From assembly GCF_000009705.1 (NCBI RefSeq), contig NC_003272.1, positions 4,680,001 to 4,712,000 on the forward strand: DNA of 32,000 nt. The letters run 5' to 3'. Under the pieces are notes generated by a model. The model saw nothing but the letters and a program-made list of their open reading frames with translations, did no database searches and was not told where the DNA came from. Below, piece after piece: positions 10,925 through 19,507 of the stretch. Both the position numbers and the translations under genes were made by a program. Positions within the stretch are counted from its first letter, which is position 1. Every line of letters starts with the position of its first letter. This DNA comes from Nostoc sp. PCC 7120 = FACHB-418 (GTDB taxonomy: Bacteria; Cyanobacteriota; Cyanobacteriia; Cyanobacteriales; Nostocaceae).

Positions 10925-12637
10925 TTAATAATGGTTACCTGATTTGCGATGATGCACGGCTGTAACACCGTCCTGATTTAGGACTTTGCCATTTTCTACA
11001 GTTGCATAAACCAGCCAGTGGTCGCCTGATTCCATACGGTTTTGGACTGAACATTCCAAATATGCTAGAGCATCTTGCAGTACAGGACTACCGTTTTCAG
11101 CTTCGGCTGTCGCCACATCAGCGAATCTATCTTGTGCGGGGCCGAATGGTTTGAGAAAGTGTTTCATCAATCCCAGGTGATTACCCTCTTTTAGAACATT
11201 GAGAACAAATTTATTCCCGGTATGGGTCAGCGTTTCTACTGCACGGTCTTTGGCAACGGCGATGGTTAAGCCAGGCGGATTAAAGCTGGCTTGAGCCACC
11301 CAAGAGGCTAACATGGCGCTGGATATTTCCCCTTGCTTGGCGGTAACAACGCAAAGTGACCCGACTATTCGTCCCACGGCTTGTTCTACATTTGTGGCTG
11401 GTACACTTTGAGTCCGGACTTTCCTGGCTTTCTTCAAGGCTTGGGCAAAGTCGGTTCCGGCTTCTTCGCACATTTGCAAGGTGACTTCGTTGGGTTTGAA
11501 TTTGACGCGAATAGAGTCAAAACCAAATCTATAACCGGCATCTTTGAGTTTACTTTCAATTAAATCAACCGCTTCACCACTCCAGCCAAAGGAACCAAAC
11601 ACGCCAGCTAATTTGTTATTGGTGGCGGTTGATAAAACTATACCTAAAGCTGTTTGCACTGGTGTGGGTGCATGACCGCCAAGGGTGGGGGAACCCATAA
11701 CAAAACCAGCAGATTTTTCGACTGCGGCGCGAATTTCTTCCGGGTCGGCAAATTCACAGTTAATTGATTCTACCGCGACACCAGCTTTAGTAATACCACG
11801 AGCGATCGCCTGTGCCAATGTCGCTGTGTTTCCATAAGCTGACGCATAAATCAATGCGACTGTCAAGTCAGCAGAGGTTTGTTGTTGACTCCATTCGCGG
11901 TAGGCGTGGGTAAGTTCAATTAAGCCGTAACGCACCAAGGGGCCGTGACCAGTTGCATACAAGCGTGTAGGGAAATCGGCAAGTTTATCTAAAGCTGTTT
12001 CCACTTGCCTGGCATGGGGAGCCATCAAGCAATCATAATAGTAACGGCGGTCTTCGTTGATTGTTGCCCAACCTTCATCAAATACTTGGTCGCCGCAAAT
12101 ATGCGCCCCAAATAGCTTATCTGTATAGAGAATTTCGGTTTGGGGGTCGTAGGTACATAATTCATCGGCGTAGCGGGGGTTAGGTGTGGGGATGAATTGT
12201 AAATTATGCCCTTTCCCTAAATCGAGGGTTTCCTCACCCCGCATAATCAGCATTGGTAAATCCGGGTTTTCTAGCACCCCACGCAAATTAATCGCCCCTG
12301 GATTAGAACAGACAAAGGTAATTTGTGGTGCTATTTCTAGTAAAGCTTTTAAGGTAGCCGCACGGTTGGGGTTAATGTGACCGAGAATAACATAATTGAT
12401 TTCTGTGACATCTAGTCGTTTCTGCAACGCATCCAGATAAATCTGCGTGAAGGTTTCCCCTGGCGGGTCAATCAGAGCCAGCTTATCACCTTGGATTAAA
12501 TAAGAGTTAGCCGTGGTTCCCTTAGCTAAAGCATACTCAATTTCAAATCTTAATCTTGTCCAACTGCGCGATCGCAGTACTGTAGTATTTGTACCAATGG
12601 GTAGGACTTGAACGTCTCGTGGTTTGGTTTGTGACAT
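10925..12637 (-). CDS. flv1A: class-C flavodiiron protein, FlvA-type (non-canonical di-iron site)
   Basis: 570 aa with metallo-beta-lactamase, flavodoxin and C-terminal flavin-reductase modules. The di-iron ligand motif reads HINPNR instead of HxExDH, the hallmark of the Flv1/FlvA clade. The symbol comes from memory of PCC 7120 gene order. Confidence 0.85.
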   Translation of the reverse strand: MSQTKPRDVQVLPIGTNTTVLRSRSWTRLRFEIEYALAKGTTANSYLIQGDKLALIDPPGETFTQIYLDALQKRLDVTEINYVILGHINPNRAATLKALLEIAPQITFVCSNPGAINLRGVLENPDLPMLIMRGEETLDLGKGHNLQFIPTPNPRYADELCTYDPQTEILYTDKLFGAHICGDQVFDEGWATINEDRRYYYDCLMAPHARQVETALDKLADFPTRLYATGHGPLVRYGLIELTHAYREWSQQQTSADLTVALIYASAYGNTATLAQAIARGITKAGVAVESINCEFADPEEIRAAVEKSAGFVMGSPTLGGHAPTPVQTALGIVLSTATNNKLAGVFGSFGWSGEAVDLIESKLKDAGYRFGFDSIRVKFKPNEVTLQMCEEAGTDFAQALKKARKVRTQSVPATNVEQAVGRIVGSLCVVTAKQGEISSAMLASWVAQASFNPPGLTIAVAKDRAVETLTHTGNKFVLNVLKEGNHLGLMKHFLKPFGPAQDRFADVATAEAENGSPVLQDALAYLECSVQNRMESGDHWLVYATVENGKVLNQDGVTAVHHRKSGNHY

Positions 12638-12957: not shown

Positions 12958-13115
12958 ATCATCTATTAAAAAAGCGATCGCCTCAAACAACGCTGTTAAA
13001 ATAAAACCATACTCGATGCCGTATCCATCCTATGACTATTGCGCCAGAAAAAAATCCGCAAACGCAAATGAACTCTGGTGAGATGACACGATGCTTTGAT
13101 TTATAAGTTTTACTT

Positions 13116-13304
13116 AAGCTGTCGTAACGACAACATAAGCATTTGCCACAAATAGATAAACGTTCGTAACGACACAAGTTGTGTTCGTAACGAACGGACA
13201 AGCTGTGGTAACGACAAAAACTTTATTCGTAACGTCTGTTTCTGTGTTGGTAACAAATGAACAAGCTGTTGTTACCACAAGAACTTGATTTGTAACGTCA
13301 CTGT
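13116..13304. repeat. nine phased 21-bp tandem units with a palindromic TCGT-N-ACGA core
   Basis: Units start at 13116, 13137, 13158, 13179, 13200, 13221, 13242, 13263 and 13284. Two units carry perfect 13-bp odd palindromes: tgtcgtaacgaca (13120-13132) and gttcgtaacgaac (13183-13195). Units 4-6 and 7-9 form a 63-bp higher-order repeat. Confidence 0.85.
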
Positions 13305-13315
13305 TGTAAAAGTGC

Positions 13316-16300
13316 TTAAATGATTCTGAAGAGGATTTGCTTTAAGCTTTGCATTGTACGAGTAGTAATATCATGCTGATGCCAAGCTTGATAGAATTTG
13401 GAGTAAGGCATATTCTGGGCGCATTCCCAGGCTAAATCGTAGTTATCACCATACAATCGCCGATAACCACTTAAAGTTTTGACTGCCTCAAAGAAATACT
13501 TATTGTCTTGTAGAATTTTCCCTAAGCTAAATGCAGCCTGACTACGGGTGTCGTCATCCACATGATTTAATAGTACGACTAGCATCAAGGCAGTGATCGC
13601 TTTTCCATTACCTGTGCCAATTTTCCCTAAGCTTTCTGCTGCTTGTCTACGGGTGTAATTTTTCACATTTTTTGATTGCAGCAATTTTACCAAAGCAGTG
13701 ATCGCATTTTCATTGCCTGGGTCGATTTTTTCTAAGCTTTCTGCTACCCGTTGGCAGGTCGAGTCATCCAGATTATTTGATTGCAGCAATTTTACCAAAG
13801 CAGCGATCGCCTTTTCATTGCCTGCGCCGATTTGCCCTAAGCTTTTTGCTGCCTGCCAACGCGTCAAGTCATCCACACTTTTTGATTGCAGCAGTTGTAT
13901 CAAGGCGGCGATCGCATTTTCATTGCCTATGCCGATTTTCCCTAAGCTTGATGCTGCCAGCCTACGGGTGTAGTCATCTACAGTAGTTGATTGCAGCAGT
14001 TCCATCAAGGCGGCGATCGCATTTTCATTGCCTGTGGCGATTTGCCCTAAGCTATCTGGTGCTAGGCTACGAGTGAAGTCACCCACACTTTTTGATTGCA
14101 GCAGTTGCAATAAAGCAGCGATCGCTTCTTTATTGCCTGGGTCGATTTTCCCTAAGCTTGATGCTGCGGACATACGGGTGTATTTATCTACATCAGGTGA
14201 TTGCAGCACTTGCACTAAAGCAGCGATTGCAATTTCATTGCCTGGGTCGATTTGACCTAAGCTGTATACTACCTGACTACGGGTGTCGTCATCCAGATTA
14301 TTTGATTGCAGTAGTTGCACTAAAGCAGCGATTGCAAATTCATTGCCTGGGTCGATTTGACCTAAGCTATGTGCTGCTAGGCTACGAGTCAACACAGCCA
14401 CATTCTTTGATCGCACCAGTTGTAGCAAGACGGCGATGGCAATTTCATCGCCAGGGTTGATTTGCCCTAAGCTATGTGCTGCTAGGCTACGAGTCAAGTC
14501 ATCCACATTCTTTGATTGCAGGAGTTGCAACAAAGTTGCGATCGCTTTTTCATTACCTATGCCGATTTTCCCTAAACTTTCTGCTGCCTGCCAACGGATG
14601 CCGTTATCCACATTATTTGATTGCAGAAGTTGCAACAAAGCTGTAATCGCAATTTCATTGCCTTTGCCGATTTTCCCTAAGCTTTCTGCCACCTGCCAAC
14701 GGGTGTAGTTTTTCACATTCTTTGATTGCAGGAGTTGCAACAAAGCTGCGATCGCTTTTGTACGGTTGATTTTTTGTAATGTTGATCTAGCTTCCTCTTC
14801 AATTGCTTTGGGAAAGCTGCTCCACTCTTTCTTTTTATCTAAATAACCAAAGCTCCACTTGACAATTTGCGCTACTATTTCATTGTCTCTATAAGAACCT
14901 TTAAACTCTGCAATTCCTGCGGCGGCTAAAAAATAGGCGCGATATTCATAAAATCCTTTATCTATATCTTCTCTATTCCGCTTGCCACATCTATCTTTAA
15001 AACTAACTAAAGCATTGATAAACTGTTGTTTTTGCCATTTGAGGTTTTCCTCTTCTCGCCCTAACCAAAGTAATATTGTTTGCTTCCATCGCGGTTCAAA
15101 AATGCGATAAGTTCCTTGATTGGGAGTATTAGGAACGTGGTTGAGAAAGAAATGCCAGTCATTGATAGCTTTAGCAGCAAAGTACTCTTGAAATGAAGCA
15201 TGAAAGAAAGCGTAAACAGGTTTTCTATTTGTATCTATCCCTACACGGTTCAGCCAGCCGTGATTTAGTGCCAATTTCAGCAGTGATTTTTCATCTTCAG
15301 CATCTCCCAAAAACCGACTAACAAAATCCTGCCGCAATCGAAAACGGGTTGCTTCTTTATCTATTGCTGCTTTAGCCAATTCCCCTAGTTTGATATTGAG
15401 TTGCTGATGCTGGTCAGATGTTGTAGCAAATTCCTCTTTTTTCCACTTGTAGAAGTCATTAACAAATTGCTGATAGAGTCCCGCTTGAGTATCGGGTAAT
15501 TTGCCATCTCCTGATTGCCAATTTAAACACAGCAGCGTCAACCGCAAAGGATTTTTTACTAAATCCTGAATCCGTTCTTTACCTGATTCTTTTAGAGCAG
15601 TGCATAACTGCTTTCCAGTTTCGGGAATAGCAGCGAACCATCTGTGAATAAATTTCTCTACCTGTTCTGGATAAGAAAAATCTAAACTGCGATAGGTATC
15701 AAAATCATCAAGTGCATTAATGCTGCCATCCCACAGATTAACTCGACAAGTCAGCACAATTCGCGCTTGAGAAATTAACCCTGCTTCACGAAATTGCCGT
15801 GCAATCTCTGTTAGAGGATTAGATGCAGACATTTCATCTAACCCATCTAGCAGCAGCCACACATTATCTTGCTTAAATAAAGCAACAAAATTCTCCTTTA
15901 GTTGCTTAGTGGCTTCAGCTTTATCTACTTTCTCAGCCACCTGAGTCAACCAAGTTTCCAACAGATAAGATTTGAGTTCCTTTCCTCGCAAATCTGCTAA
16001 AGATACCCAAATGACAATCGACTGGGGAATCTCACGAGATACCCAATTAGCAATCTGCTGTAAGAGTGTTGTCTTTCCTGCACCTGGTTCACCAATAATT
16101 GCAATTCGCTTACCTTGACTTTTAGGCGTGTTCTTCTGTTTGAGAACTTCTTCTAAAAAAGCATCATGCTCAAATGTTTTGGTGATTTCTGTCTCCTTGT
16201 ACAGTTCTGAACCCTGTTCTGGAGAAATATCACCTTGAGGCTTAGGCTGTTTTTTACGCTCAACTAATCCCAGTGGTACATAAACATCATCAACTTGGAG

Positions 16301-16429
16301 CGTTACGCCTTCCGTTGATGTCAGAGGATTTGTAGTCAGCTTGCGCCGTTCTGCAATTATTTCACAACAGATTTCACGCCAGTCATCGGGAGTTAACTTT
16401 GTCCCCTCCTCCCCTGGAGACGACTGCGG
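13316..16429 (-). CDS. NACHT-family STAND NTPase with 12 C-terminal HEAT-like repeats; open frame with no start codon of its own upstream of the P-loop (possible pseudogene or readthrough product)
   Basis: Hand translation shows the frame is open from just after the TGA at 16430-16432. Walker A is GEPGAGKTT (complement of 16067-16093) and Walker B is VWLLLDGLDE. The first ATG/GTG/TTG is the TTG at 15991 used by the ORF track, which lies downstream of Walker A. The C-terminal half is 12 x 35-aa AIAALLQLLQS...SLGKIG.GNE repeats. Confidence 0.8.
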   Translation of the reverse strand, partial: PQSSPGEEGTKLTPDDWREICCEIIAERRKLTTNPLTSTEGVTLQVDDVYVPLGLVERKKQPKPQGDISPEQGSELYKETEITKTFEHDAFLEEVLKQKNTPKSQGKRIAIIGEPGAGKTTLLQQIANWVSREIPQSIVIWVSLADLRGKELKSYLLETWLTQVAEKVDKAEATKQLKENFVALFKQDNVWLLLDGLDEMSASNPLTEIARQFREAGLISQARIVLTCRVNLWDGSINALDDFDTYRSLDFSYPEQVEKFIHRWFAAIPETGKQLCTALKESGKERIQDLVKNPLRLTLLCLNWQSGDGKLPDTQAGLYQQFVNDFYKWKKEEFATTSDQHQQLNIKLGELAKAAIDKEATRFRLRQDFVSRFLGDAEDEKSLLKLALNHGWLNRVGIDTNRKPVYAFFHASFQEYFAAKAINDWHFFLNHVPNTPNQGTYRIFEPRWKQTILLWLGREEENLKWQKQQFINALVSFKDRCGKRNREDIDKGFYEYRAYFLAAAGIAEFKGSYRDNEIVAQIVKWSFGYLDKKKEWSSFPKAIEEEARSTLQKINRTKAIAALLQLLQSKNVKNYTRWQVAESLGKIGKGNEIAITALLQLLQSNNVDNGIRWQAAESLGKIGIGNEKAIATLLQLLQSKNVDDLTRSLAAHSLGQINPGDEIAIAVLLQLVRSKNVAVLTRSLAAHSLGQIDPGNEFAIAALVQLLQSNNLDDDTRSQVVYSLGQIDPGNEIAIAALVQVLQSPDVDKYTRMSAASSLGKIDPGNKEAIAALLQLLQSKSVGDFTRSLAPDSLGQIATGNENAIAALMELLQSTTVDDYTRRLAASSLGKIGIGNENAIAALIQLLQSKSVDDLTRWQAAKSLGQIGAGNEKAIAALVKLLQSNNLDDSTCQRVAESLEKIDPGNENAITALVKLLQSKNVKNYTRRQAAESLGKIGTGNGKAITALMLVVLLNHVDDDTRSQAAFSLGKILQDNKYFFEAVKTLSGYRRLYGDNYDLAWECAQNMPYSKFYQAWHQHDITTRTMQSLKQILFRII
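13496..14755 (-). repeat. 12 x 105-nt in-frame tandem coding repeats (HEAT/PBS-lyase-like)
   Basis: Exact 105-nt period (for example tttgattgca at 13671, 13776, 13881 ...). Long identical nucleotide blocks alternate with short variable blocks. Six units carry a perfect HIP1 GCGATCGC encoding Ala-Ile-Ala. Confidence 0.9.
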
Positions 16430-16864
16430 TCAGTTGTAAGTATTGTTTTGTGTGAAATGTTCGATATTTTGAGCAACTGTAGCACCTTTCTCTGCTTTTA
16501 TTGTCTCTGCCATCTTAGTAAAATTTTTAACAACTGATGGGTGTGACTTGATTTCATCTGCTAACTTTTTAATTTCCTTAGCGGCCTCAGACTTGTCATT
16601 ATTAACTACTGCTTCTACATCCACGACAGCTTGAGCAATTTCGGGGTCTTGTGCTGCTTGTGTCAGTTCTAACACTGCTTGACCGTAATCTAATCTCTCC
16701 GGTTCATCACTGGTAAGAGATGGTGCTTGATTCTTTCGGCGTAGCAACTCTATCAACTGACCAGGAGCATTCCATAAAACATCACCAATGTTTTCGCCGA
16801 TTTTCTCTTGTGCTTTAGTCCAAAATACGGTAGCTACAGCAATCAATAAGCTCTCAATGGTCAT
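16430..16864 (-). CDS. 144-aa all-helical N-terminal module of the NLR-like gene, terminated by an in-frame TGA
   Basis: MTIESLLIAVATVFWTKAQEKIGENIGD... A hydrophobic first helix is followed by Ala/Glu/Lys-rich helices. It ends ...TQNNTYN-TGA in the same frame as the NACHT region that follows. Confidence 0.7.
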   Translation of the reverse strand: MTIESLLIAVATVFWTKAQEKIGENIGDVLWNAPGQLIELLRRKNQAPSLTSDEPERLDYGQAVLELTQAAQDPEIAQAVVDVEAVVNNDKSEAAKEIKKLADEIKSHPSVVKNFTKMAETIKAEKGATVAQNIEHFTQNNTYN

Positions 16865-17027
16865 ATATCCACTATAAATAGGCTAAAATAGCGTCAAAAT
16901 TTGTCTGTATATATTCTAGTGGTGATATTACTGATACGCCAAATGTGAAGGCGATCGCTCTTGGCGGCTGTTTAGTCAATTATTAGGTAAGATAAAGTGC
17001 GATCGCCATGACTCATCAAAGGTAATC

Positions 17028-17621
17028 TTATCTGTATTTCTCTACAGATTCCACAGCAATATTAAATTGTTGAGCAATCTGTTCTACACTCATCCCAGTT
17101 TTTAGTAACAGTGGGACAGCAACTTTCAACAGTTCTTCTCGACCTTCTTCTCGACCTTCTTCTCGACCCTCAGCTTTAGCTTCTTGATATACTCTTGTTT
17201 GCTCTAAAGTTATTCCTAGCATAGCTTCTACTTCCTGTCGACTCAAAGACGAAAACTTGTAAACAGCAATTGTCGTAATAATTTCGATGATTTCGTTTTT
17301 TGGTAGCCTACCTGTTTCTTCTAATTTTACTCGTTGAATTAGTTGCTTGGCTTGCTCTGCCATTGTTTCAGAGGATGCAATTGTTAACAGCATTAAGTTG
17401 ATGCTGATTGGCAGAGTATCAGAAGTAACTAATTCATCCAAATAAATGCGCTGCACTTGGTCGCTGTTTAAAAATATGCGATGAGTTATTGTGTCCCTTG
17501 GTTCCAGACTGCGAGTTGGAAAAATCACCACACAATACCAGTCATCATACTGGGACTGATTACGGTACAAATAGGTTAGCGACTCGGTAAAAAAGCGATG
17601 ATATAAAAACTCTACCCACAA
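17028..17621 (-). CDS. Rpn-family / DUF4351 PD-(D/E)XK putative transposase, N-terminally truncated remnant
   Basis: The C-terminal part (IYLDEL..., VYKFSSLSRQEVEAMLGI..., TRVYQEAKAEGREEGREEGREE, SVEQIAQQF) matches the cyanobacterial Rpn/DUF4351 family as I recall it. The first ~70 aa, including the nuclease N-terminus, are missing. The frame hits a TGA just upstream of a TTG start. Confidence 0.6.
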   Translation of the reverse strand: MWVEFLYHRFFTESLTYLYRNQSQYDDWYCVVIFPTRSLEPRDTITHRIFLNSDQVQRIYLDELVTSDTLPISINLMLLTIASSETMAEQAKQLIQRVKLEETGRLPKNEIIEIITTIAVYKFSSLSRQEVEAMLGITLEQTRVYQEAKAEGREEGREEGREELLKVAVPLLLKTGMSVEQIAQQFNIAVESVEKYR

Positions 17622-17782: not shown

Positions 17783-19507
17783 CTAATAATGATTACCTAC
17801 CTTGCGGTGGTGAACGGCTGTCAATGCTTCGGATTTGGAAACGCGTCCGGCGTAGACTGTGCTGTATACTGCCCAGTGGTCGCCGCAGTCCATACGGCTG
17901 ACTACTTCGCATTCCATGTATGCTAAAGCGTCGCCGAGGATGGGTGCGCCGTTTTCGGCGGGTTGGGTTTTGACTCCTTCAAAACGGTCTGCACCAGGGG
18001 CGAATCGTTTGAGGAAGTGGCGCATGAGTGGTTGATAATTGCCTTCTTCTAATACATTGAGGACGAAGCGATCGCCTACTTGCATTAGTGATTCAATTGC
18101 TCTATCTTTAGCTACGGCAATGGAAAATCCTAAGGGTTTGAAGCTGGCTTGATTTACCCAGGAGGCTAACATGGCGCTGGAAACGTCGCCTTTTTTGGCT
18201 GTGATGATATATAAGCCACCACTCAGTCTCCCTAGTGCTTTGTCTAAATCAGCACCCAAGGATTTCATTGCTTTGATGCTGCGATCGCGTGTTACCCATT
18301 GTCCCAAATCTGTGCCTGCTTCTTCACACAGTTTGTAGGTGTTTTCCGTGGGTGTTTGTTTAATGCGAATGGCGGGGAAAGCGGTTGTTAAGCCCAAGTT
18401 GCGGAATTTGCTTAATAACGGGTCTATGGGTTCATCATCGCCGCCACCAGTTTCAAATATACCTACGGCTTGTTTTTCGTTAACAGACCCTAAAATGGTG
18501 CTGAGTGCGCCTTGAATACTAGCAGCACTAGCAGCCGGAGACATCCCAATTACCAGTCCAGTACACCGCCCAACTAGTTCGCGTAGTTCTTGTAAATCTA
18601 CGGCTGCACCCAAATCTACAACGTCTACACCCACACCAGTTTTCGTAATACCGTTAATAATTGCTTGGGCTAGGCGATCGCTATACCCATATTCCGAAAC
18701 GTAAAATACACCTATGCTGGTTTCTGCTTTGGTTTGGTTTTGGCTCCAAGTGCGATAACGTCCGGTGAGTTCCTCAACGTTATGGTAGAGTAATGGGCCG
18801 TGACCAGTAGCGATCATTTTCACGCTTGGCAATTCTCCCATACGCTTGAGGGCAGATAGTACCGAGCGCGCATTCGGCCCCATCAGGCAATCATAATAAT
18901 AATGAAAGTCTGGTTCAATGGTTTTTAAGTCTTCATCAAAGACAATATCGGAACAGTAGTGCATTCCGAAAGCGTCGCAGGTGTATAGGGTTTGGGTTTT
19001 GTGGTCAAAGCTAAAAATGGTGTCTGGCCAGTGTAAATTGGGGGCGATGACAAACTCAAATTCGTGACCGTTACCTAAATCTAAGCGATCGCCATTTTTA
19101 ACAATTTTCCGCTTAAATGGTTGATGTACTAAATCTTCTAGAAACTGGATGGCAACTTTTGAGCCAACCACTGTAATTTCTGGAGCCATTTGTAACAAAT
19201 CTTTGACTAAGCCACTGTGGTCTGGTTCAGTGTGGCTAATAATCAAATAATTGATCTCTGTGGGATTGATTAGCCCTGTCAGAGTATCAAAGTAAAGTTG
19301 ACGAAACTTTTCATGAGACGTATCAACTAAGGCTATCTGCTCACCGCGTATGAGAAATGAGTTATATGTAGTACCGTTTTGCAGACCAAACTCAATATCA
19401 AAGCGATCGCGTTCCCAATCTAGAGAGCGAATTGCCGTAGTATCTTGAGCAATGTCCGCAGTCTGTATGGTGAGCCGTTTTTCAGTTTTCTCGGTGAGTG
19501 CTACCAT
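17783..19507 (-). CDS. flv3A: class-C flavodiiron protein, FlvB-type (canonical di-iron site)
   Basis: 574 aa with the same three-module architecture as flv1A. It has the canonical ligand motif HTEPDH. The symbol comes from memory of PCC 7120 gene order. Confidence 0.85.
   Translation of the reverse strand: MVALTEKTEKRLTIQTADIAQDTTAIRSLDWERDRFDIEFGLQNGTTYNSFLIRGEQIALVDTSHEKFRQLYFDTLTGLINPTEINYLIISHTEPDHSGLVKDLLQMAPEITVVGSKVAIQFLEDLVHQPFKRKIVKNGDRLDLGNGHEFEFVIAPNLHWPDTIFSFDHKTQTLYTCDAFGMHYCSDIVFDEDLKTIEPDFHYYYDCLMGPNARSVLSALKRMGELPSVKMIATGHGPLLYHNVEELTGRYRTWSQNQTKAETSIGVFYVSEYGYSDRLAQAIINGITKTGVGVDVVDLGAAVDLQELRELVGRCTGLVIGMSPAASAASIQGALSTILGSVNEKQAVGIFETGGGDDEPIDPLLSKFRNLGLTTAFPAIRIKQTPTENTYKLCEEAGTDLGQWVTRDRSIKAMKSLGADLDKALGRLSGGLYIITAKKGDVSSAMLASWVNQASFKPLGFSIAVAKDRAIESLMQVGDRFVLNVLEEGNYQPLMRHFLKRFAPGADRFEGVKTQPAENGAPILGDALAYMECEVVSRMDCGDHWAVYSTVYAGRVSKSEALTAVHHRKVGNHY

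Follow-up and report, generated by a model that had tools for sequence, protein, structure and literature searches.

An in-frame UGA and a conserved RNA element between a Bell-like protein and a NACHT-HEAT protein of Nostoc sp. PCC 7120: a candidate for programmed readthrough in a cyanobacterial gene family

The window analysed here is a stretch of 32,000 nucleotides from Nostoc sp. PCC 7120 = FACHB-418 (accession number, NC_003272.1, positions 4,680,001 to 4,712,000), and all coordinates given below are positions within it. On its minus strand, a 144-codon open reading frame (ORF) for a small helical protein is followed by a single UGA and then, in the same frame, by 1037 codons for an NLR-type protein with a NACHT domain and HEAT repeats. 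Programmed UGA readthrough is probably the means by which both products would be made, namely a free Bell-like effector in abundance and small amounts of an effector-motif-NLR fusion, and the locus would then be a one-ORF amyloid-signalling NLR. This reading is favoured because the UGA-C is conserved, the sensor has no conserved start, purifying selection is found upstream of the possible starts, and an RNA structure lies past the stop.

Interrupted reading frame and conservation of the stop codon

The 144-codon ORF starts from the ATG at 16864 on the minus strand and ends ...TQNNTYN, followed by TGA at 16432-16430. Past the TGA, the frame resumes as PQSSPGEEGTKLTPDDWREICCEIIAERRKLTTNPLTS... 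and stays open for 1037 codons to the TAA at 13318-13316 (minus strand), and the joint product of both parts would be 1182 aa and 132 kDa. The earliest in-frame ATG, GTG or TTG past the TGA is the TTG at 15991, which lies 146 sense codons on and beyond Walker A. A preliminary description of the window, made from the sequence alone, had reported the ORF ending with its same-frame continuation and the position of Walker A ahead of this TTG, and all of these coordinates were reproduced; the 891-aa protein called from the TTG in the ORF track was also found to be without a P-loop, as had been stated there, Walker A lying 5′ of its start. The features of the interrupted frame are as follows.

16433..16864, minus strand: 144-codon ORF, 15.9 kDa, with a Bell-like helical domain and a C-terminal tail; presumed termination product (translation).
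16429..16432, minus strand: in-frame UGA (16432-16430) and the C at 16429; proposed readthrough site (conservation).
16388..16421, minus strand: conserved RNA element, with its onset 8 nt past the UGA (alignment, RNAalifold).
16361..16429, minus strand: linker of 23 codons (PQSSPGEEGTKLTPDDWREICCE), ending in a DW..C motif that belongs to the NACHT module (comparison).
13316..16429, minus strand: 1037-codon continuation with NACHT, helical region, 12 HEAT repeats, NCC-H and TAA; its late-start annotation is all3892 (Pfam).
15632..16108, minus strand: NACHT NTPase domain, PF05729, continuation residues 108-266 (Pfam, 8.5e-13, above the gathering score).
16067-16093, minus strand: Walker A, GEPGAGKTT (sequence).
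15833-15862, minus strand: Walker B, VWLLLDGLDE (sequence).
13515..14759, minus strand: HEAT-like repeat array, 11.9 copies of 105 nt (35 aa), presumed sensor (Tandem Repeats Finder).
13379..13459, minus strand: NCC-H (NACHT C-terminal Cys/His) domain, PF22730 (Pfam, 4.3e-11).

In addition to NACHT and NCC-H, HEAT_2 (7e-56) and HEAT_PBS (5.5e-26) were matched by Pfam in the continuation, and the NACHT domain followed by 12 HEAT-like repeats of the preliminary description was borne out by these matches and by the copy number from Tandem Repeats Finder. The same profile searches gave nothing in the 144-aa part. With NACHT, Walker A and Walker B present, the continuation has the features of a STAND/NLR-like NTPase; of the tripartite NLR order, the NTPase and the 12 HEAT repeats are present, and readthrough of the UGA would be needed to attach the N-terminal module to them. 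A homologue from a public short-read assembly (P0094) is 100% identical over the covered part of the query, yet comprises 786 aa against 891 from the same TTG; the shortfall corresponds to about three 35-aa HEAT repeats and would reflect strain variation in repeat number or assembly collapse of the 105-nt array (13515-14759).

For the comparison of relatives, 80 genomic loci were fetched with a profile of the N-domain (the small protein) and combined with the window, L001 (Nostoc) and L002 (Calothrix PCC 6303) to a set of 83 loci. In L001 and L002, an ORF of 146 or 152 codons is followed by TGA, exactly 23 open in-frame codons and then Met, and the nearest NACHT homologues, which are ~90% identical to the window, are annotated from a Met aligned to Ile169 of the window frame. 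An N-domain ORF, TGA and a long in-frame ORF (up to 1165 codons) were found in 79 of the 83 loci. The context at this stop was TGA-C in 78 of the 79 and TGA-A in one, and CUA is the triplet after the UGA in most loci. The stop that closes the long ORF served as a control in these loci; it was TAA 36 times, TGA 14 times and TAG 4 times, and never TGA-C, so that both the identity and the 3′ context of the internal stop are conserved beyond expectation (TGA-C in 78/79 versus a TAA-dominated control). In 75 of the 79 TGA loci, the DW motif follows at a fixed offset and the P-loop usually stands at codon +112 (codons are counted from the TGA), and the other 4 continue into a different NTPase; the four loci without this arrangement comprise 1 classical two-gene layout and 3 orphan or degraded copies. 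The recurrence of the same TGA, frame and spacing in 79/83 loci is far beyond chance. Alignment of orthologues, proposed in the preliminary description, thus gave a conserved TGA and not a sense codon, and separate genes with a bona fide start, which would have spoken against an interrupted single gene, are not the consistent state of the family, being present in only 1/83 loci (L011).

A protein search with the N-domain returned 109 homologues of 47-99% identity from many Nostocales genera, all of them stand-alone proteins of 85-180 aa; a fusion to an NTPase was found in none of these, and a sense codon at the junction in none of the 109 N-domain and 743 NACHT homologues. An exhaustive profile search gave 263 clusters of N-domain relatives, again nearly all stand-alone (120-170 aa). 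A few distant true fusions exist, such as P0346, which is joined to a NACHT domain through a sense TCC codon, and P0331 (823 aa), in which the partner joined directly to a distantly related N-domain is a dynamin-like GTPase and not a STAND NTPase. In copies that have lost the sensor (L037; unit 1 of L098, at 196-630), TAA stands at the stop and the cassette is degenerate. One and the same set of N-domain, tail, UGA-C and RNA element stands ahead of two NACHT subtypes (HEAT repeats and NCC-H) and of NB-ARC with TPR repeats. Scanning of metagenomes with the cassette pattern yielded 12 further loci, all with the same N-domain family upstream, and no other N-terminal domain using the cassette was present among these 12. 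Decayed copies were also observed (L020, L038, L053 and L066), with an early TAA in the N-domain or with sensors cut by deletions or frameshifts.

An independent start for the sensor was looked for in the same loci, and neither a conserved ATG, GTG or TTG nor a start-like triplet after the Shine-Dalgarno (SD)-like run in the RNA element was found. In 10 loci, the window included, there is no in-frame ATG, GTG or TTG between the TGA and the P-loop, and in the others the first such codon stands at 24, 25, 30, 31, 34, 36, 42, 43, 44, 51, 72 or 76. Codon +24 encodes Ile in 45 loci, Met in 17 and Leu in 11, and the corresponding position is an internal hydrophobic residue (AML, TML) in relatives with a stop-free N-terminal fusion. 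For codons +24 to +112, the ratio of nonsynonymous to synonymous substitution rates (dN/dS) was 0.19, and 0.20 in the ten start-less loci, and these codons are therefore translated. An invariant Trp at +17 and the DW..C motif (+16 to +21) sit upstream of +24, the motif being common to EAD10-fused and BASS5-type relatives, in which it is certainly translated, and the linker is always open and always 23 codons long. Since coding constraint and the shared DW..C motif are found past the stop and a start is lacking, translation would enter upstream of +16, which is possible only via the UGA; conserved in-frame coding past a stop without an independent start is what readthrough predicts. The predicted peptides LTPDDWR, EICCEIIAER and LTTNPLTSTEGVTLQVDDVYVPLGLVER map upstream of every canonical start, and the junction peptide predicted for the readthrough product with Trp at the UGA is GATVAQNIEHFTQNNTYN[W]PQSSPGEEGTK. 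Many close NACHT homologues are annotated from an internal Met at +24 or from a later TTG or GTG, and several are flagged 'partial'.

RNA element past the stop

Variability in the family peaks in the ten tail codons that run up to the UGA. The 23 linker codons beyond it show the strongest nucleotide conservation, with third codon positions no freer than first positions. At codons +3 to +15, dS was 0.118, threefold lower than the 0.34-0.41 of the flanking coding sequence, and dN/dS was ~1.15; the depressed dS together with this ratio indicates that an RNA element is embedded in the coding sequence. Its parts in the window are as follows.

16421-16417 with 16405-16401, minus strand: stem 1, GUCUC/GGGAC (RNAalifold).
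16413-16409 with 16392-16388, minus strand: stem 2, GGGAG (in the loop of stem 1)/CUCCC (alignment pairing).
16400-16393, minus strand: loop 3, conserved and A-rich, AAAGUUAA (alignment).

Stem 1, of 5 bp and starting 8 nt past the UGA according to RNAalifold, is 98.5% paired over 79 sequences. Compensatory double changes were found at 3 of its 5 pairs (UA to CG in 13 sequences, CG to GC in 14 and CG to UA in 4), and at least five haplotypes occur (GUCCC/GGGAC, GUCUC/GAGAC, GUCCG/CGGAC, GCCCG/CGGGU and GCCCG/CGGGC). These changes alter the encoded amino acids (SSQGEDGT to SPDGEKRV), and constraint is therefore stronger on the RNA than on the protein. For stem 2, pairing reaches 95.4%; in four NB-ARC-type loci (L042-45) GGGA/UCCC is replaced by CAGG(A)/(U)CCUG, and in one locus the register is shifted. 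Pairing falls to 31-58% once the stem partners are slid as a control, and both stems are intact in the window copy. From the comparative evidence, stem 1 can be regarded as established and stem 2 as likely, and an H-type pseudoknot formed by stems 1 and 2 with the loop AAAGUUAA is the best model, predicted and not proven. A conserved 3′ structure at the spacing appropriate to readthrough is thus present, as seen from stem 1, its covariation and the low dS; its stimulatory role is putative.

A nested alternative was considered, in which an 8-bp outer stem CAGUCGUC/GAUGACUG encloses stem 2 (16361-16427, minus strand; alignment A2 columns 22-29 with 61-72). The outer stem is only 85% paired on the alignment and breaks, without covariation, whenever one side changes, and stem 1 was preferred. 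It can form in most main-type loci and is mutually exclusive with stem 1, and a conformational switch between the two may exist. Searching of the junction against Rfam gave chance-level matches only and no matching family. An out-of-frame mini-ORF (AUG GGA CAA AGU UAA), whose AUG abuts the SD-like GGGGAGG, lies inside the RNA element (alignment A2 columns 41-55) in L001 and L002 as well as in most main-type loci; neither the window (GAG for GAT) nor the variant haplotypes have it, and it is probably incidental.

Small protein, layouts of the family and explanations of the stop

Within the small protein, which is 100% identical to BAB75592.1 (all3893, Nostoc sp. PCC 7120), the following parts were distinguished.

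16799..16858, minus strand: hydrophobic helix 1 at the N-terminus, IESLLIAVATVFWTKAQEKI (alignment and model).
16433..16495, minus strand: C-terminal tail rich in N, Q and G, AEKGATVAQNIEHFTQNNTYN, which finishes exactly at the UGA and is a candidate amyloid signalling motif (composition, comparison).

The AlphaFold2 model of the 144-aa protein is all-helical, with a predicted local distance difference test score (pLDDT) of 76.6, helix 1 at residues 3-22 and low pLDDT in the tail. The family consensus of the N-terminus is M(E/V)(P/T)VTLTAVATAIA, and relatives start with MEP[VIL]T or MVTVT (alignment A1). The MEP[VIL]T start resembles in sequence the N-terminal 'MEPIS' region reported from Bell and Hell domains and from some antiphage NLRs (10.1101/2024.11.07.622273). 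Nothing significant was found for the protein in Pfam, NCBIfam or PADLOC, and a Bell model is itself absent from these three collections. Of the features of Bell proteins, an all-alpha fold of ~100 aa with a hydrophobic first helix is present, and the protein adjoins a collinear NLR-type gene in the window and in 79/83 loci. The earlier suggestion of a small helical membrane-targeting module accords with the hydrophobic helix, the all-helical model and a sister locus of Bell/BASS5 type; structure prediction and Foldseek, also proposed there, agreed with it as to the helices and supplied no fold match. The tails are N/Q/G-rich with alternating hydrophobic residues and form the most variable part of the family, in at least four types. 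In the window only one motif copy is present, for PQSSPGEEGTK... after the UGA does not repeat the tail as the second member of a BASS pair would; the single copy could still serve if readthrough puts it on the NLR. The RNA element, the amyloid-motif-like tail and the family-wide arrangement had not been seen in the preliminary description.

Sister loci with the classical two-gene layout were used for comparison. In L011 (Fortiea), the N-domain is 73% identical to that of the window and ends ...KLADKIGQVVIGGTGTIENMTF-TGA-TAA, and an ATG 17 bases past the double stop opens an NLR starting MPEDSGKLADKIGAYAGYGGTVNINNLTV..., with a 14-residue linker and the same DWREIC motif. The N-terminus of this NLR repeats the BASS5-type tail of the effector, so that two copies are encoded; L084 has the same arrangement with a decayed N-domain, and both loci are without the RNA cassette. 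BASS5 Bell/NLR pairs, such as KLADKIGQVVMPGGTGNIQNQ with MPEDSGKFADKIGVFAAPGAQVNIGTQI, have been listed for Nostoc carneum and Tolypothrix tenuis (Dyrka et al. 2020, 10.1101/2020.01.06.895854, Table S2), and L011 and P0001 are near-verbatim matches to the published pairs (KLADKIGQVV..GGTG.. and MPEDSGKFADKIG..). The distance from the end of this motif to the DW motif is ~15 residues in either layout; a readthrough product would therefore carry the motif exactly where a classical NLR does. Judged from sequence, the family holds two layouts, one with the motif twice, an own start and a double stop without the cassette, and the other with the motif once, UGA-C and the cassette without a start. 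A readthrough-type locus is present in L039 (Nostoc carneum NIES-2107) and L067 (Tolypothrix tenuis PCC 7101), and Table S2 also lists a classical BASS5 pair for both of these genomes and a BASS9 pair for T. tenuis, so that the layouts coexist.

If the UGA is read through, the following steps are proposed. Ribosomes would initiate at the AUG at 16864 and most of them would stop at the UGA (16432-16430), freeing the 15.9-kDa protein; a minority would decode the UGA, most likely by tRNA-Trp, aided by the weak UGA-C context and by the compact RNA structure 8 nt on. These ribosomes would yield the 132-kDa fusion of the Bell-like domain, tail, 15-residue linker, NACHT, 12 HEAT repeats and NCC-H. 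The tail would be a bacterial amyloid signalling motif needed on both effector and NLR, which is encoded once and put on the sensor by readthrough. On binding of a trigger by the HEAT sensor, NACHT would oligomerise and the tails would be gathered and nucleate the amyloid fold; the gathered tails would then template those of the abundant free protein, and its helical domain would damage the membrane and kill the infected cell. The signalling steps are modelled on HET-S/NWD2 and Bab/Agp. We infer readthrough, its efficiency and the inserted residue from sequence comparison, and the putative amyloid templating, membrane attack and anti-phage role from analogy.

Several results weigh against this interpretation. 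The loci share descent, so that the counts given above exceed the number of independent events. Support for readthrough from L097, a distant relative with TGG (Trp) at the codon homologous to the TGA, then a homologous linker with stem 2 lost, is of limited weight, since its contig is short and carries a later frameshift. In stem 2, in-register double changes were not found in the main group, and for the window sequence alone the minimum-energy fold is the nested alternative, with an unexceptional z of -1.23. As to the protein, neither a sequence profile search of the PDB nor Foldseek on the AlphaFold2 model gave a significant match for the 144-aa protein; its Bell assignment is a resemblance, based on likeness to published motif pairs and on shared features and not on a profile match, and the tail of the window is a candidate amyloid motif by its composition and its likeness to BASS3/BASS5 examples of Table S2.

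The main rival is independent non-canonical initiation with coupling. It holds that the two parts form a two-gene operon without readthrough, the NLR being initiated at a non-canonical or variable codon (e.g., AUA/AUU/AUG/UUG at +24), and we regard this as unlikely; the RNA structure would then serve coupling or regulation, masking the SD-like GGGGAGGA until the upstream ribosome opens it, a role to which we give the same low credence. Codon +24 is always Met, Ile or Leu, i.e., a start or near-start codon, and public annotation places the starts of many homologues at the +24 Met, but in fused relatives M/I/L at this position is also an internal hydrophobic residue (AML, TML). Similarly, the 5′ arm of stem 2 is SD-like with an anti-SD-like partner (CUCCC), and structure-gated coupling is generally known to be common in bacteria; however, no start-like triplet stands 5-10 nt past the SD-like run, and none is found in the conserved AAAGUUAA. 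Trp +17 and DW..C lie upstream of +24 and second codon positions are the most conserved there, as in coding sequence, and an untranslated spacer would not remain in-frame, stop-free and exactly 23 codons long in 75 loci. The requirement for UGA-C is also left unexplained by two genes, and real two-gene relatives use TGA-TAA and ATG without the cassette. It is rather unlikely, on the other hand, that readthrough is real and follows another logic, with the free N-domain being a decoy, an inhibitor, a chaperone or a by-product that keeps the sensor low. The recoding evidence is identical for this reading, the distant direct fusions P0331 (dynamin-like GTPase) and P0346 (NACHT) indicate that a fusion alone can be a working architecture, and the amyloid nature of the tails is putative only; if only the fusion mattered, however, sense codons would be expected at the junction, and none was present among the 109 N-domain and 743 NACHT homologues. 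The tail is moreover N/Q-rich and diversifies in types, and the NLR of L011 carries a second copy of it, in just the manner of the published BASS5 pairs.

Decoding of the UGA as selenocysteine, with the downstream structure as a selenocysteine insertion sequence (SECIS) bound by SelB, is very improbable. An in-frame UGA with a close conserved stem-loop is generally known as the signature of bacterial selenoproteins, but the UGA here falls in a linker that connects a variable tail with a sensor, and not in a redox centre, relatives carry Ser or Trp and not Cys at the UGA position, and no SECIS match was obtained with Rfam. The cyanobacteria analysed for it are without the Sec-decoding trait (PMC1273633). 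That the window holds a plain pseudogene, with an inactive full-length gene and no product beyond, at most, the 144-aa protein, is scarcely credible. Degraded copies are known in the family (L020, L038, L053, L066), and the window has ATA where annotators use a Met codon elsewhere; against this, the window keeps 1037 open codons, Walker A and B, the repeat array, NCC-H and both stems, the same 'defect' is the ancestral and selected state in ~80 genomes, and ATA/ATT is the majority state at +24. Of the nonsense mutation and the readthrough between which the preliminary description had left the choice, a dead gene is excluded for the family and is unlikely for the intact copy of the window, and readthrough is strongly favoured by the sequence comparison. 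With readthrough so preferred, its level could itself be a sensor input, the sensor dose being set by release factor 2 (RF2) termination at a weak, structure-tuned UGA, a notion for which we see only a slight chance. Suppressor or extra tRNAs, release-factor depletion, ribosome modification, temperature or Mg2+ could then raise the fusion and arm cell death, and, if true, a guard of translational fidelity would be added to ligand recognition by the HEAT repeats.

Genomic neighbourhood and comparison with known systems

The remaining features of the locus concern its surroundings.

16913..16942, minus strand: promoter-like site 5′ of the 144-codon ORF; weak evidence, consensus match only (motif scan).
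17031-17621, minus strand: all3894, a DUF2887 protein with a resolvase-type helix-turn-helix, just upstream of the effector/NLR unit.
17786-19507 and 10928-12637, minus strand: flanking 574-aa and 570-aa ORFs, flavodiiron proteins.
12983-13201 and 13114-13278, minus strand: two small ORFs (72 and 54 codons) between the NLR stop and flv1A.

No terminator-like site was found on the minus strand between both coding parts in the scan that gave the promoter-like site, and the 72-aa ORF at 12983-13201 is without a Pfam match. The gene order flv3a-all3892, all3893, all3894-flv1a has been published for PCC 7120, and in A. variabilis flv3a and flv1a are adjacent (PMC4390876); in the literature found, all3892 and all3893 are named only as neighbours of the flv genes (PMC4390876). 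Because of the identity to BAB75592.1, the flavodiiron flanks and the published flv order, the small ORF was assigned to all3893 and the NACHT gene to all3892. Genes all3892-all3894 are a three-gene insertion between flv3A and flv1A, which suggests that the effector/NLR unit arrived by a mobile or recombination event. Related loci have other surroundings, e.g., beside a CheA-like gene or an ABC transporter, and the unit therefore moves.

If readthrough is true, ~80 or more examples would be at hand, one of them in the genetically tractable Anabaena/Nostoc PCC 7120 (all3893/all3892). They would represent a third NLR architecture between 'all-in-one' and 'two-gene', in which decoding sets the effector-to-sensor ratio in one frame, and would explain the many cyanobacterial Bell-type proteins that stand beside NLRs seemingly without a matching motif. 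Hundreds of cyanobacterial NACHT/NB-ARC entries would then probably have wrong, truncated N-termini, some of them, like the 891-aa call, without a P-loop.

Of the known systems, the Bell/BASS pairs (10.1101/2020.01.06.895854) and Bab/Agp (10.1101/2024.11.07.622273) likewise have a small helical protein, 100-140 aa in length, whose first helix is hydrophobic and whose C-terminus carries a short N/Q/G-rich motif, and Bab/Agp has been studied experimentally as an antiphage system (10.1101/2024.11.07.622273). In Bell/BASS pairs of filamentous cyanobacteria, the gene for the small protein also directly precedes that for a NACHT or NB-ARC repeat protein and is collinear with it. The published pairs, however, have two encoded copies of the motif, a separate start for the NLR, and ORFs that overlap or are a few bases apart in no fixed frame, whereas in the window the motif occurs once, UGA-C stands in frame, an RNA structure is conserved and the NLR is without a start. 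Stop codons or readthrough are not mentioned by Dyrka et al. (2020, 10.1101/2020.01.06.895854), and their tables are without these tails or PCC 7120. The all-in-one NLRs, i.e., fungal HeLo/Hell-NLRs, plant CC-NLR resistosomes and Avs2/bNACHT (MEPIS-like), have the same order as the readthrough product, with a helical killing domain, NTPase and repeats, but arise by ordinary translation, and their frame yields no free effector. EAD10-NACHT relatives (PF19954) share the NACHT clade and its N-terminal boundary (IDWxxIxxxML..RLTTNPLTS) at 55-66% identity; their N-terminal adaptor is fused without a stop, and they have no Bell-like domain, tail or RNA cassette.

Structure-assisted stop-codon readthrough is textbook knowledge for viruses, and conserved cases in cellular bacterial genes are, to our knowledge, almost unknown. 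In the gag-pol signal of murine leukaemia virus, a stop codon is followed by an 8-nt spacer and an H-type pseudoknot, and the leaky stop gives an abundant short and a rare long product; viral readthrough contexts of the UGA-C/CUA type occur as well. The window shares with murine leukaemia virus gag-pol the 8-nt spacer, a compact two-stem structure, an A-rich third loop and the C after the UGA, and differs in being a bacterial chromosomal gene, in the use of RF2, in stems of 5 + 5 bp and in a stimulation that is putative. In A1 of phage Q-beta, UGA is decoded at low frequency by tRNA-Trp to give a functional C-terminal extension; we know of no dedicated downstream RNA structure there, and, unlike the family described here, A1 is a phage gene and not a conserved cellular gene family. 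A literature search for cyanobacterial readthrough, bacterial readthrough pseudoknots and stop codons in amyloid-signalling NLRs returned no prior description, in line with the earlier statement that a stop-gated N-terminal module on a HEAT-sensor NLR had not been characterised. Bell/BASS-NLR pairs and viral readthrough pseudoknots are each known; what appears to be new is their combination, a cellular bacterial UGA cassette that would encode both NLR partners.

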